Shown here: positions 34,691 to 39,562 of the stretch, in pieces | How the letters are laid out: the number at the start of each line of letters is the position of its first letter | Numbering within the stretch: position 1 is the stretch's first letter | Assembly (NCBI GenBank): GCA_000002435.2 | Contig: CM018793.1 | DNA from: Giardia intestinalis | Lineage: Eukaryota | Reading direction: 5' to 3' (one strand) | DNA length: 64,000 nt | Translations under genes and position numbers: made by a program | Notes under the pieces: generated by a model | What the model was told of the DNA's origin: nothing | Databases searched by the model: none | The model's input: only the letters and a program-made list of their open reading frames with translations

Positions 34691-35425
34691 CTATGTGTAT
34701 CCTTCCTCAATAGAACGATATTGCCCATGCTCTGTGAGAAAGTGTTGAAAGGCATCCGTCTGAACGACGCTTAGTGTGGAACTAAGAAGCTGAAGGTATT
34801 CTGCTAGGCGCTTTCGCCTATCTTCTATGAAAAGGGGGTCATACAGGCTCTGAAATACGGATCTTTGAGGTGGTAGAGAGGGCAAGGGTCCCACCTTAAG
34901 ATCCAGCAAGGTGGCAGCTAGCCGCTTTACATCGTTGAAGCGTCGATAGACCATGTAGTAGCGCTTGTTCGCAGGTAGTTCCGACTTGAAAATCATCCTG
35001 TACTGTGTGTATGGATGGTTCCTGTCCATCATGGTGTGGGGTTGGTCTACAATAACCGCCGTAATGTGGGTGATAGGATTCTGTGGATCGTAGACGGTGG
35101 GCTTGCCCCAAGGAGGAAAGGCACTGGGGATAGCAGATAGCGCCCCCGTCTCTTCGGCCAGTGCATTGGCCCGGACCTTAGCTGCAGACAAAGCTGCATC
35201 GACAGACGCATAGGTTTTTATGTGGTGCAGCGCATGATAAAGAGTGCTTACAATGCTTTCGGCCTCTCGCGAGGTGGCCGTGCCCGCAGAGACCATGCCA
35301 CTGAGCTGATCCACCATGCTCGCAAGCTCTTCATACTCCTCCGGGTGCGACTGTGATATGGCCTCAATATCCGCCCTTAGCGCTTCAAGGGACCCTGCTG
35401 CAAACATGAGTACGTTTTTTATCAT
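34691..35425 (-). CDS. PX (phox homology) domain protein
   Basis: The C-terminal half matches the PX consensus: ...YMVYRRFNDVKRLAATLLD...PLPSLPPQRSVF...DPLFIEDRRKRLAEYLQLL (RR[FY]SDF..L, the PxxP loop, and the E.R...LE.YL helix). Confidence 0.7.
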   Translation of the reverse strand: MIKNVLMFAAGSLEALRADIEAISQSHPEEYEELASMVDQLSGMVSAGTATSREAESIVSTLYHALHHIKTYASVDAALSAAKVRANALAEETGALSAIPSAFPPWGKPTVYDPQNPITHITAVIVDQPHTMMDRNHPYTQYRMIFKSELPANKRYYMVYRRFNDVKRLAATLLDLKVGPLPSLPPQRSVFQSLYDPLFIEDRRKRLAEYLQLLSSTLSVVQTDAFQHFLTEHGQYRSIEEGYT

Positions 35426-35487: not shown

Positions 35488-37536
35488 CTAGTCCTTATCT
35501 GGCATGCCGCTTCCGCCGATAAACTCTCTTAATAGGCTGAATTTAGGAACAAACTCGCTATTAATGGAAGCAACTTTTTCTAGGAGGGCGATAAGTTGTC
35601 GTGCCTCCTTGTATGCAGAGCTGTCGGGCTTGATCTCACAAAGCAATGGGTAGGCATGCGTGTTAAGGACACATAGCTCATAGTCCAACGCCGTATTGAA
35701 CATGATATCGGCCCTGTGCTGATGGGGATAGATCCACCTATCTTCTCCTACACGCAAATTCTTCAGTAGCTCGATTGTCTTTTCAGCCGTGAAACCGCGG
35801 AAATTGTTGTCGCGCACAATGCGTCTGATAAGGCGACAATCCCTGGAGGAGATCCGCATGCGGTCGTCCATGTTGATGGCAGTGAAGGGAGCAATAAAGA
35901 CCAAGATCTTGTTAGGCAGAGGGATTCTCCTGCTGAGGAGAGGATTGAGAGCGTGGATGCCCTCGATGATGATGATCCCCCTGAAAGGCATTATCATTTC
36001 TATGGTGGATTGCTTTCTTGTACCTGTCCTGAAATCAAAGATTGGGCTGAGAATCTTCTTTCCGCTGATAAGTGCCTCGAGATGATCGTTAAAGAGATCA
36101 AGATCCAGGGCGTTAACATGTTCGAAGTCATAGCTCCCATCCTCTGCCAGTGGGGTCTTCTCCCGGTCAACGAAATAGTTGTCAAGCGAAATGATAAGAG
36201 GTTCGCGGCCCATAACCTTGAGATTATATGCGAGCTTCTTGGCGAAGGTCGTCTTGCCGCTAGAGCTTGGACCTGATATGAATACAACCTTGATCTCCTT
36301 GTCCTCAATGTTAGAGACGGGTGCATAGCAATTAGACACTTCGGCAGAGGTCAGCATACCGGGCTCCACTTCAGAATCCGATGTGCCAGTAGAGCTAGTA
36401 GACACCCTTGCGTCCACTAGCTCCTGTGACATCGTTTTAGAGTCTACCTTGATGCTACGGGAGTTCACACCACTGTCTCCGTCGATTCGGAGACTCATCC
36501 CGAGAGTGTAGTTGGCGGCTCGCGTAGCCTTCTGGTATTGCTGAAGATACTCTCTATTGTTGGCAATTACGTCACAAAGCTCAGCAAGCTTCTTGTTCTG
36601 CATGGTTTCGCAGATTTGGATGAAACTCTTAATCATGCCCTTGTAGCACAAATTGTTCAAGTGCCCGATAGTCCGAACTTTCAAGACGCGGATCCACTGC
36701 GTGTATTCGCTATATACGTCGTGTAACAGTTCATTGGGCTTGAAGGGAATGAGCTCAGTAGGGGAGCGTTTAGATGGGAAGCTTATGACAAACCCATCTT
36801 TGTAAGTATGAAGATCGTAGTACTTAAGAAGACCTGTGACAGGTGCCAGAGGAGTGTGATAAATTTGCACATAGTCGTCGCACCTTACGGTCATCACACG
36901 AACCTCATTGAGGGACTTGAGGAGGGCGACAGAGTTATAGTCCGAGACGCTCTCCAAGGCTGTCTCCAAGTCATTAGCATTCATGGGAATGTTGCTAGAG
37001 ATAGGGCGGTTAGCCTTGATCAACAAGTTCAGCTCCTGTCGCAAATTGGTAACGATCTCTTCCGTAATATGTTTGTCATTGCTGAAAAACATCGATGAAG
37101 CATTTGTTATGCAGACGTCGTGATTAGCATCTTCCTTTGGGCCATGTGCACAGATGTCCGTGGTCTTTATATCCTCCATCTGAAGATTCTTGGAGCTATT
37201 ATCAACGTATAGATAGTAGGAGTGGCCCTGCGAGTGAGAAATCTGAAGTGAGTCTTGGGGGAACAACTCAGACCAGACCTTGCCCAAAGCGAAGATCAGC
37301 GACCTGCGATAGCACTCCGCGCCATCCGTTGTGGCCACAGAGTATGGGACAAGGGTGCAATTAACGCCCACCTTTTCGGAAAGCGAGGTAAGTTCGTTGT
37401 TGACCGTGCAGACGATGAACGGATGCCCATCACTAGGGAATTCGTCTGGGTACATGCGTATGATGTCGTAGATATGCATGCGCGCAAGGACCGTAATGGT
37501 ATGCCCGGTGGGAGTGGTGACCTGAACCGTGCGCAT
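35488..37536 (-). CDS. Uridine/cytidine kinase family P-loop kinase with long N-terminal extension containing a TGS-like (ThrRS/GTPase/SpoT) domain
   Basis: The C-terminal about 250 aa: VVFISGPSSSGKTTFAKKLA (Walker A), SLDNYF, YDFEHVNALDLDLF, PIFDF, IIIEGIHAL, RRIVRD. These are collinear with the uridine-cytidine kinase blocks (SQDSFY, FNFDHPDAFD, PVYDF, VLFEGILAF, RRVLRD). The N-terminus MRTVQVTTPTGHTITVLARMHIYDII...FIVCTVNNELTSL resembles a TGS domain. Confidence 0.7.
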   Translation of the reverse strand: MRTVQVTTPTGHTITVLARMHIYDIIRMYPDEFPSDGHPFIVCTVNNELTSLSEKVGVNCTLVPYSVATTDGAECYRRSLIFALGKVWSELFPQDSLQISHSQGHSYYLYVDNSSKNLQMEDIKTTDICAHGPKEDANHDVCITNASSMFFSNDKHITEEIVTNLRQELNLLIKANRPISSNIPMNANDLETALESVSDYNSVALLKSLNEVRVMTVRCDDYVQIYHTPLAPVTGLLKYYDLHTYKDGFVISFPSKRSPTELIPFKPNELLHDVYSEYTQWIRVLKVRTIGHLNNLCYKGMIKSFIQICETMQNKKLAELCDVIANNREYLQQYQKATRAANYTLGMSLRIDGDSGVNSRSIKVDSKTMSQELVDARVSTSSTGTSDSEVEPGMLTSAEVSNCYAPVSNIEDKEIKVVFISGPSSSGKTTFAKKLAYNLKVMGREPLIISLDNYFVDREKTPLAEDGSYDFEHVNALDLDLFNDHLEALISGKKILSPIFDFRTGTRKQSTIEMIMPFRGIIIIEGIHALNPLLSRRIPLPNKILVFIAPFTAINMDDRMRISSRDCRLIRRIVRDNNFRGFTAEKTIELLKNLRVGEDRWIYPHQHRADIMFNTALDYELCVLNTHAYPLLCEIKPDSSAYKEARQLIALLEKVASINSEFVPKFSLLREFIGGSGMPDKD

Positions 37537-37672
37537 TCAGCTTTTTCTGCGGTTCTGTGCAAATTATTTTAAAACAAATCTTCCTGGCAGGTTAAAATGA
37601 TGAAAAAGAGCATACAGTGTGCAAGGCAAAAATGAAACCTCAACATTAAAAAGGCAAGGTGCAGTGTCCCCG

Positions 37673-39562
37673 ATGTCTGATCAGGAGATAATAGGTGATT
37701 ATCTGCTTGGAAGACAGCTTGGAACGGGTACCTTTGGAAAGGTGAGGGTTGCAACACATATCCCAACAAACTGCACTGTTGCAATCAAGATCCTTTCCAA
37801 GTCCAAGATCACTCAAATGAACATGTGGAGCAAGGTCGAGCGGGAGATCATGATCATGAAGATGGCTCGGCACCCGCACATCATCAATCTCTACGAGGTT
37901 ATTTACCGCGAGGACGACATCTACTTGGTTATGGAGTACGCAGAAGGAGGCGAGCTTTTTTCTTATATTGTGAAGCACAAGCGACTAGACTCTACTACGG
38001 CACGCAAGTTTTTCCAGCAGATCATCTCTGCCCTTAGCTATCTTCACATTAAGGTCTCAGTGACTCACCGGGACTTAAAGCCCGAAAACATTTTACTGAC
38101 TAAGAACAAGCTTATCAAACTCTCTGACTTCGGCCTCTCCAATGTCATGAGCGAGGGGGAGTTTCTCAAGACCTCGTGTGGCAGTCCTAACTATGCGTCT
38201 CCTGAAGTGGTCGCTGGGACCCTATACATTGGCCCTGCAACGGATATTTGGAGTGCTGGGTGTGTGCTCTACACGCTTTTGGTCGGCAGACTCCCGTTCG
38301 ACGACCACTATATGCCTGCGCTATTCCGAAAGATTAAAACAGGAGAATATGTTATACCAGATTATGTGGACTCGGGCGCAGCAGATATGCTTCGAGGGAT
38401 GATGACTGTGGATGTCGATAAGCGCTTTACGATAGACATTATCCGCGCACACCCGTGGTTTACCGTTAACCTCCCAAAGCACTTGCTGATCAGCTTCGAT
38501 AGCGATCCCAGCGACCGAGAGGAGGAGCTCCGGACCACAGATCAGGGGCAGCGCATAGTAGACATGTACAACGCCCTAAATCGGCAGTCCACCATTGACG
38601 ATATAAAGCGCAAATTCAAAGCGGGCCAAACAGACAGTGACACCGTTTGTTATCAGCTCATTCACGACCACATTTTCGATGAGATTATTGCGAGAAGCTT
38701 TGGCATTATCGGCGAACCCGAGAGCAACCCAGCAGGCGCAAACAGATCCATCTTCGACTCATCGTCCCTCTCTGCCCTCGGTAACGTGGCGTCTGGGGGC
38801 TCCGGAGATCACGAGGAGGACGCTATGGATCCTTCTGGTCCAGTGATATCCCAAAATCCGTTTGCTCCTCCTGAGGCAGTTGCACCTGCCAAGGGGCCTC
38901 TTCTACCCTCCCAGGAGCATGAGTTTTCCGGCCTGGTCTTTAACACATACGTTAGAACCCTGCCACCGACGCTTAATCCCGAGGCATCTCTGAGCCCAAA
39001 CGCCCGCAAAGTTGACGGCGCTGAAGCCGTTTCTTCTAATACCGATGATGGGTGCTATAACGATCAAACAAAGGTCGCCAGTGGTGGTTTGACCCTCGCC
39101 CAATTTCGCGACGGTCTCAACGGTTCACTAAGATCTGAAAAGGTTGACAAGAAGAGCATGTTTTATTTTGGCGTCACTGGGTGCAATATAGCAGTCATGC
39201 CTCCGCCGGATATGATGTGTCTCATACTGGAGACGATGCGTGAACTGGGATTCAAGTGGCGCATAGGGGGCTTGAATGCCTCCAAGTACTACGACTCAAA
39301 TATCGGACGTGACACAGTAGTGCTGAAAACAGATACGTCAAAAAAAAGGAACAACTTCTGTGTAGCATTTAAGCTTGTGAACCCTGCGTCTGCCATACAA
39401 AACGACCTGATAATAGGGCTGACACTTTATATTGCAATAGATCAGAGTAATCATGCCAATTATGTCGTTGATCTGCGAATGATAACCGGAGAGCTGAATC
39501 TATTCCTCCACTATGCACAAAGGATCGGGCAGGCCATCACAGAGCACTTTCGGGCGGGGTAG
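37673..39562 (+). CDS. AMP-activated / SNF1-family protein kinase catalytic (alpha) subunit
   Basis: MSDQEIIGDYLLGRQLGTGTFGKVRVATH...AIKIL..., VTHRDLKPENILL, KLSDFGLSNVMSEGEFLKTSCGSPNYASPEV, DIWSAGCVLYTLLVGRLPFDD. These are near-collinear with AMPK-alpha kinase domains, followed by a C-terminal regulatory region. The track start at GTG 37619 was moved to the first ATG. Confidence 0.85.
   Translation: MSDQEIIGDYLLGRQLGTGTFGKVRVATHIPTNCTVAIKILSKSKITQMNMWSKVEREIMIMKMARHPHIINLYEVIYREDDIYLVMEYAEGGELFSYIVKHKRLDSTTARKFFQQIISALSYLHIKVSVTHRDLKPENILLTKNKLIKLSDFGLSNVMSEGEFLKTSCGSPNYASPEVVAGTLYIGPATDIWSAGCVLYTLLVGRLPFDDHYMPALFRKIKTGEYVIPDYVDSGAADMLRGMMTVDVDKRFTIDIIRAHPWFTVNLPKHLLISFDSDPSDREEELRTTDQGQRIVDMYNALNRQSTIDDIKRKFKAGQTDSDTVCYQLIHDHIFDEIIARSFGIIGEPESNPAGANRSIFDSSSLSALGNVASGGSGDHEEDAMDPSGPVISQNPFAPPEAVAPAKGPLLPSQEHEFSGLVFNTYVRTLPPTLNPEASLSPNARKVDGAEAVSSNTDDGCYNDQTKVASGGLTLAQFRDGLNGSLRSEKVDKKSMFYFGVTGCNIAVMPPPDMMCLILETMRELGFKWRIGGLNASKYYDSNIGRDTVVLKTDTSKKRNNFCVAFKLVNPASAIQNDLIIGLTLYIAIDQSNHANYVVDLRMITGELNLFLHYAQRIGQAITEHFRAG

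Follow-up and report, generated by a model that had tools for sequence, protein, structure and literature searches.

The 64,000-nucleotide stretch of Giardia intestinalis DNA analyzed here (assembly GCA_000002435.2, contig CM018793.1; hereafter the window) carries a uridine kinase gene at positions 35488-37536 of its minus strand. This gene very probably encodes a long-form, bacterial-type ribonucleoside kinase with a dead threonyl-tRNA synthetase (ThrRS) module, whose whole architecture came from bacteria, from a Spirochaetota-like donor, and entered the Fornicata once. The gene is a single open reading frame (ORF) of 682 amino acids (aa), its coordinates including the stop codon, and the product is 100% identical to the "Uridine kinase" of G. 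intestinalis ATCC 50803 / WB (XP_001706712.1 / UniRef A8BIZ7 / GL50803_8217). It is the only member of the long-form kinase family seen in the window. From the N-terminus onwards, the protein would consist of a ThrRS N1 domain (a TGS beta-grasp), a ThrRS N2-like domain with dead editing site, a helical linker, a P-loop kinase of the uridine-cytidine kinase (UCK) type, and C-terminal helices. The corresponding features are as follows.

35488-37536, minus strand: complete coding sequence (CDS) of the Giardia uridine kinase, 682 aa plus stop (35488-35490), from the ORF list and the 100% identity to the annotated protein
37339-37536, minus strand: TGS-like beta-grasp, the ThrRS N1 equivalent, residues 1-66, from the family profile, AlphaFold2, and superposition on 1tje
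36772-37338, minus strand: fold like the ThrRS N2 (editing, or 'second additional') domain with the catalytic residues replaced, residues 67-255
37069-37188, minus strand: insertion 1, residues 117-156, inside the N2-like domain, predicted disordered
36559-36771, minus strand: conserved helical linker between ThrRS-like module and kinase, residues 256-326, from alignments and AlphaFold2
36307-36558, minus strand: insertion 2 (Giardia/diplomonad), residues 327-410, Ser/Thr-rich and predicted to be mostly disordered
35692-36306, minus strand: P-loop kinase core of the PRK/uridine-cytidine-kinase type, residues 411-615
36250-36273, minus strand: P-loop G422-T429, within the kinase core
35491-35691, minus strand: family-specific C-terminal helical extension, residues 616-682, ending in S-[IL]-L-R-E-F-I-G-G-S

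Bacterial architecture and probable bacterial origin

In alignments, the whole Giardia protein is colinear with bacterial 'nucleoside kinases' of ~553 aa, its N-terminus coinciding with that of the bacterial homologs. The domain order is the same from end to end in the bacterial long form (COG0441+COG0572, KEGG K00876; WP_014624847.1 of Spirochaeta thermophila and WP_027629166.1 of Ruminiclostridium cellobioparum), and the motifs YRRSLxF, GPSSSGKT, FDFxTGxR, LDDxxRI, RLIRRIVRD, and SILREFIGGS are common to both. Compared with the bacterial long form, the kinase half is 48-52% identical and the N-terminal half 24-31%; in the latter, BLAST aligns the first 345 residues with a bacterial protein at 31% identity over 328 residues (E=2e-53). 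The differences from the bacterial long form lie in the eukaryotic host, in the length of 682 instead of ~553 aa, which is owed to the insertions at 117-156 and 327-410, and in two positions of the N-terminal module described below. The fusion was inherited ready-made from bacteria and not assembled in Giardia. Canonical kinases, in contrast, namely human UCK2 (1udw/6pwz), Thermus Udk (3asy), and E. coli Udk, are 23-29% identical to the Giardia protein and lack the N-terminal ThrRS module, the C-terminal extension, and a 13-residue insert preceding the lid. The kinase half shows 51.5% identity to a Spirochaetota protein, whereas the figures are 29% for E. coli Udk and 23% for human UCK2.

The bacterial distribution was assessed by scanning one genome per prokaryotic species, with the SILREFIGGS motif as one of two retrieval patterns. 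The long-form gene was found in at least 593 bacterial species from many phyla, including Spirochaetota, Clostridia/Bacillota, Bacteroidota, Verrucomicrobiota/Kiritimatiellia, Chloroflexota, Acidobacteriota, Cloacimonadota, and Myxococcota, in agreement with the first-pass annotation, which had called the fusion bacterial and a candidate lateral transfer. For eukaryotes, a set of 5.8 billion proteins was searched twice, the second time using a profile built from fornicates alone, with the same picture: the 120 best-scoring proteins listed in each case included eight eukaryotic clusters, identical in both searches, namely three lineages of Giardia, one cluster each from Hexamita, Trepomonas, and Dysnectes, and two Logan contigs without assignment. 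Spirochaetota proteins followed directly, and no non-fornicate eukaryote was present among these 120 in either search. Orthologs in the other Giardia lineages are 86-91% identical. The free-living diplomonad Hexamita inflata (cluster P0006) has several near-identical copies under different accessions and on different contigs, which suggests a recent paralog expansion of the gene.

No neighbor of the bacterial gene is conserved across phyla in the 80 loci inspected, the largest real cluster comprising 10 loci, and the contexts are local to lineages, for instance an HD-domain gene among spirochaetes or rpoD-trmK-NIF3 among certain clostridia. In these Clostridia, the long-form kinase lies just downstream of rpoD, trmK (tRNA m1A22 methyltransferase), and NIF3, while other clostridial loci place it beside an RNHCP-domain gene and a gene of the U32 peptidase family. 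These tRNA- or RNA-related neighbors occur in only 4-7 of the 80 loci (e.g., L021:1257-3943 and L006:5568-8079).

In bootstrapped trees of 111 full-length sequences and 552 columns, the fornicates are monophyletic (bootstrap 100), with Dysnectes branching first, then Hexamita and Trepomonas (Hexamitinae), and then the Giardia group, as in the organismal relationships. The fornicates form a clade with Spirochaetota (90), in which all 11 of the 11 labelled genome loci are spirochaetal, and the next groups outward are Verrucomicrobiota/Kiritimatiellia (87) and Acidobacteriota/Myxococcota (83). When the two halves of the protein are analyzed separately, fornicate monophyly persists (100 and 96), and the N-terminal half links the fornicates to spirochaetes with a bootstrap of 84. 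The long form is separated from the canonical kinases (human UCK2, E. coli Udk, and P10 Udk) with a bootstrap of 100, human UCK2 being the sole eukaryotic UCK reference in the tree. The Giardia gene thus does not fall within eukaryotic UCKs, differing from canonical UCK1/UCK2-type enzymes and UCK-UPRT fusions in both architecture and tree placement. The acquisition most likely occurred once, in the ancestor of Fornicata and from a Spirochaetota-like donor.

Several points weigh against this account of the origin. All trees were built by neighbour-joining, with no more than a simple correction of distances, and their bacterial sampling is biased towards the best matches to Giardia. The kinase half alone is uninformative on the donor (bootstrap <10). 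Moreover, the outgroups join the long diplomonad branches with bootstraps of 56-66 and break fornicate monophyly. At face value, this placement of canonical Udk/UCK on the fornicate stem makes the fornicates the deepest branch, as would suit a vertically inherited eukaryotic UCK to which a lineage-specific N-terminal extension was added in Giardia. Yet the attachment falls to 13 when Dysnectes is the only fornicate kept, and to 11 (on Rikenellaceae) when eukaryotes are removed, and it is read as long-branch attraction. Rooting through human UCK2, E. coli Udk, and P10 Udk was therefore rejected as giving no usable root. The vertical scenario is also at odds with the N-terminal 345 residues being themselves homologous to bacterial proteins, with a kinase half far closer to Spirochaetota than to human UCK2, with the fully supported split from canonical UCK/Udk, and with the fornicates standing alone among eukaryotes in the 120 best matches of each search, and it is hardly credible. 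Without a usable root within the family, the direction of transfer is read from taxonomic distribution, the gene occurring in several hundred bacterial species of many phyla but, among eukaryotes, in a single lineage.

No paper naming the Giardia uridine kinase gene as a lateral transfer was found in the literature. For the rumen ciliate Epidinium ecaudatum, the expressed sequence tag AM053453, a 'uridine kinase', is listed as a candidate for horizontal gene transfer from bacteria (PMC1413528, supplementary file 2). If it is a true long form, it would represent an independent transfer into another anaerobic eukaryote.

The ThrRS-like N-terminal module

A TGS-like segment at the N-terminus had been proposed in the first-pass annotation, and the plain domain search did not recover it, an outcome that, read to the letter, would count against the proposal under the refuting condition given there. 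Pfam found no TGS (PF02824) match at E≤1 with the Giardia sequence alone and none at E≤0.1 in the Hexamita, Trepomonas, and Dysnectes homologs, while phmmer with the Giardia sequence gave a weak ThrRS match (1tje, E=0.52). Since single sequences yielded nothing significant, family profiles and structure were needed to detect the domain. The family profile matches ThrRS residues 1-199/201, beginning at residue 1, with E-values of 8.6e-30 for 1nyq (S. aureus), 2.2e-27 for 1tje (E. coli), and 3e-26 for 1qf6, and further matches the mitoribosomal protein mL39 (~1e-8) and the isolated TGS domain of human ThrRS (1wwt, E=0.002). A profile built from seven fornicate sequences alone also matches ThrRS (E=4.9e-10). 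Among 68 homologs, 12 match PF02824 at E≤0.01, one of them above the gathering score (best match 2.7e-6, 27.8 bits vs a cutoff of 22.2 bits), and four match Pfam tRNA_SAD (PF07973). NCBIfam thrS matches bacterial long-form members. The TGS domain is thus present by profile and structure, and the extension is more than TGS: it corresponds to ThrRS N1 and N2 together, residues 67-255 showing both the fold and the sequence homology of ThrRS N2 / tRNA_SAD.

The structure was modelled with AlphaFold2 from a 120-sequence alignment, giving a predicted local distance difference test score (pLDDT) of 86 and a predicted template modelling score (pTM) of 0.85. Residues 3-66 form a beta-grasp in the order beta-beta-alpha-beta-beta-beta (strands 3-7, 13-17, 40-45, 48-51, and 60-66; helix 22-28) with pLDDT >93, superposed within 1tje, and are followed by an alpha/beta domain. 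The linker at 256-326 is modelled as helices 269-284, 290-298, and 302-326 (pLDDT ~90), with conserved W281, G291, N294, and E310, and no separate PDB match was identified for it. The two insertions coincide with the only low-confidence parts of the model and are presumably disordered. Both are missing from at least 90% of the bacterial homologs, with pLDDT <50 at 129-152 in the first and at 348-408 in the second. Insertion 1 is short or absent in Hexamita, Trepomonas, and Dysnectes; taken together, the two are reduced in length in Hexamita and Trepomonas and missing altogether from Dysnectes. Following the acquisition, the gene would have passed vertically, and the two disordered insertions would then have enlarged the protein in the Giardia lineage.

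In E. coli numbering, the ThrRS editing residues are His73, His77, Cys182, and His186. Their equivalents, together with that of D180, are given below.

E. coli ThrRS H73: Giardia R78; Arg in 108/112 bacterial members
E. coli ThrRS H77: Giardia F82; Phe in 107/112 bacterial members
E. coli ThrRS C182: Giardia Y226; variable in bacterial members (A/Y/S/H)
E. coli ThrRS H186: Giardia L230; Leu or Met in bacterial members
E. coli ThrRS D180: Giardia Q224; Asp in most bacterial members (108/112)

Compared with ThrRS (1tje/1qf6 of E. coli, 1nyq of S. aureus), the Giardia module thus has its H73, H77, C182, and H186 equivalents replaced, and it is attached to a kinase instead of a class II synthetase core. 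Because these canonical residues are replaced, the N2-like module is, judged by its sequence, editing-dead, like mL39, and should be unable to deacylate tRNA by the known mechanism. mL39 is a non-enzymatic paralog of the ThrRS N-terminal region, a structural protein of the ribosome that has no kinase domain and only 13-15% identity. Two positions set fornicates apart within the family. Residue 224 (36865-36867), the D180 position, is Gln or Asn in fornicates, and residue 105 (37222-37224) is His in 7/8 fornicates, creating an HSxGH motif, where bacteria have Asn, Asp, or Arg.

An active trans-editing aminoacyl-tRNA deacylase, making the protein bifunctional, would fit the clearly ThrRS N2/AlaX-like fold and sequence and the strong conservation of Y76, R77, R78, and S79 in the cleft helix, but it is very unlikely, given that the editing residues are exchanged in nearly every member (H73 to R, H77 to F, C182 to A/Y/S/H, H186 to L/M), that D180 is additionally lost in fornicates, and that the same kind of degeneration is found in the non-enzymatic relative mL39. 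The Arg-rich cleft helix (Y76-R77-R78-S79-L80-x-F82) and C219 nevertheless rank with the best-conserved positions of the whole protein, which argues for a retained binding function. Most likely, to go by these sequence features, the module is a non-catalytic domain with a ligand-binding, regulatory, or scaffolding role. As a more specific and quite speculative proposal, which we consider improbable, the dead ThrRS N1-N2 module may sense the tRNA 3'-CCA end or a nucleotide effector and gate the kinase, or alternatively aid in selecting a substrate other than uridine or cytidine. The TGS domain of RelA/Rel contacts the CCA end of tRNA, and by analogy a tRNA- or nucleotide-sensing role is conceivable. 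If such a sensor gates the kinase, nucleoside salvage would be coupled to translational or nucleotide status.

The kinase half and its substrate

The C-terminal half had been recognized in the first-pass annotation as a uridine/cytidine-kinase P-loop domain, and this identification is borne out. Pfam PF00485 (PRK/uridine kinase) matches residues 418-615 with 61.6 bits against a 22-bit cutoff (E=1.2e-16), the P-loop GxxxxGK[ST] and a UCK-like fold are present, and the nearest solved sequences are the uridine kinases 9y3v (P10) and 3asy (Thermus) and human UCK1/2. The functional residues of UCK2, whose roles are those established in structural work on UCK2 and Thermus Udk, were mapped onto Giardia with a HMMER alignment and a family conservation table of 112 bacterial members and 8 fornicates.

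UCK2 K33: Giardia K428, kept
UCK2 D62 (catalytic base): Giardia D452, kept
UCK2 D84 (ribose ligand): Giardia E472, conservative change
UCK2 R166 (ribose ligand): Giardia R572, kept
UCK2 R169 (lid): Giardia R575, kept
UCK2 R174 (lid): Giardia R580, kept
UCK2 H117 (base reading): Giardia G505, lost
UCK2 R176 (base reading): Giardia F582, lost

The UCK catalytic set is retained, with D452, E472, R572, R575, and R580 conserved in 7/8 fornicates and 112/112 bacterial members, which gives the protein the appearance of an active ribonucleoside kinase. From the homology with UCK2, one would expect the P-loop to hold ATP, D452 to activate the nucleoside 5'-OH, R575 and R580 to form the lid, and E472 and R572 to hold the ribose 2'- and 3'-OH, which would make the substrate a ribonucleoside. 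The family adds features of its own, namely the insert of ~13 residues preceding the lid helix, in which D557 and R561 are invariant and N555 nearly so, and C-terminal residues S667, E671, F672, G674, and S676, which the alignments show to be conserved across bacteria and fornicates.

The choice of base is less clear and speaks against taking the enzyme as a uridine kinase without qualification. The UCK2 His117 position is Gly in 111/112 bacterial members and in 8/8 fornicates (Gly505), and the Arg176 position holds Phe582 in the Giardia enzyme, mostly His in the bacterial members, and otherwise Cys or Tyr. In addition, no biochemical characterization of the Giardia protein or of any long-form member was found in the searchable literature. 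As the base-reading residues of UCK2 are not kept, uridine/cytidine specificity is plausible but putative.

It could be speculated that the physiological substrate is another ribonucleoside or a nucleoside-like metabolite and that the 'uridine kinase' label is an over-annotation, a possibility that is rather unlikely. Besides the lost base-reading residues and the family's own insert adjoining the lid, it would fit the score of the Giardia protein with the NCBIfam udk equivalog models, which at 97-98 bits is well under the cutoffs of 180 and 220, the bacterial long forms likewise scoring under the cutoff, and the current NCBI name of the bacterial relatives, which is only "nucleoside kinase". 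A 1985 Giardia study describes uridine use as proceeding mainly through uracil, which also fits. On the other hand, the closest solved relatives in sequence and fold are uridine/cytidine kinases, the ribose and catalytic residues match UCK, and spirochaetes such as Treponema, in which de novo pyrimidine synthesis is lacking, are not known to have any udk-like gene besides the long form. The best-supported function thus remains an ATP-dependent ribonucleoside 5'-kinase in pyrimidine salvage, to which a non-catalytic ThrRS-derived module is attached. Giardia does not synthesize pyrimidines de novo. The functional importance that the first-pass annotation ascribed to the enzyme is not established.

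A divergent relative was observed in Logan run SRR31929897 (protein P0005, L083:3001-5067), where a Giardia-group homolog of 688 aa with 44% identity has lost most of the kinase catalytic residues (equivalents of T429A, D452E, E472A, R507A, R575G, and R580K). It has no Pfam PRK match, while the N-terminal module is retained, and it may be a pseudokinase, or else a copy in decay, from an unidentified diplomonad.

Genomic setting and significance

The uridine kinase gene lies between two eukaryotic genes, and a short A/T-rich tract is found upstream of its start codon.

34691-35425, minus strand: PX-domain protein, 244 aa, 62 bp downstream of the uridine kinase gene
37537-37618, no strand: 82-bp gap between the uridine kinase ATG and the listed GTG start of the protein kinase ORF, read from the sequence
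37561-37577, in minus-strand sequence: A/T-rich tract ttgttttaaaataattt, ~25-40 nt upstream of the uridine kinase ATG
37619-39562, plus strand: Ser/Thr protein kinase, 647 aa, in divergent orientation, listed start GTG at 37619 (Pkinase 6.6e-72)

The gene is a resident of the Giardia genome and not a contaminant, as indicated by the eukaryotic flanking genes, the guanine-cytosine content of 0.48, which equals that of the flanks without any anomaly, and its position on a contig of 4.0 Mb, the longest of 155 contigs on which the identical protein is present. Bacterial contamination or a very recent assembly insertion could be suspected from the best non-fornicate matches being all bacterial, but its probability is negligible in view of this setting, of the orthologs in other Giardia lineages and in Hexamita, Trepomonas, and Dysnectes, of the eukaryote-specific disordered insertions, and of the transcription of the gene. 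GL50803_8217 is expressed and, like other salvage genes, is down-regulated in the middle to late phase of encystation (PMC8700996).

The spacers of 62 and 82 bp to the two neighbors are typical of the compact gene spacing in Giardia. Giardia promoters are short and A/T-rich, and by inference from this the tract at 37561-37577 is a putative core promoter. The CDS is overlapped by three further ORFs of 105-108 aa, two antisense (35953-36276 and 37255-37572, plus strand) and a third on its own strand in a different frame (36000-36326, minus strand), all most probably spurious. In 15-24 of the bacterial loci, too, the homologous gene is overlapped by antisense ORFs.

Much of this is already known, as the gene is annotated and the combination of ThrRS/TGS and Udk is recorded in databases. 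The Spirochaeta thermophila homolog is listed under COG0572+COG0441 and K00876 and carries the NCBI name 'TGS domain-containing protein', and the 1999 paper of Wolf, Aravind, and Koonin defining TGS is said to have noted this domain in the uridine kinase of Treponema pallidum. As the acquisition of bacterial genes is, moreover, commonplace in diplomonads, little changes for the specialist. The single, fornicate-wide acquisition and the map of the dead editing site may be new as details, though they do not amount to a new kind of thing. The gene nevertheless illustrates neatly how a multi-domain gene from bacteria can be gained in a single event and handed down within Fornicata, and the points of real interest are the role of the conserved, editing-dead ThrRS-like module and the true substrate of the family. 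If the sensor or the other-substrate proposal is true, it would give a role to an enzyme family that is widespread (>590 bacterial species) and apparently uncharacterized. This family is shared by Giardia but not by humans, and a salvage kinase of bacterial architecture with no human counterpart would be a reasonable candidate for selective inhibition or for the activation of nucleoside-analogue prodrugs.

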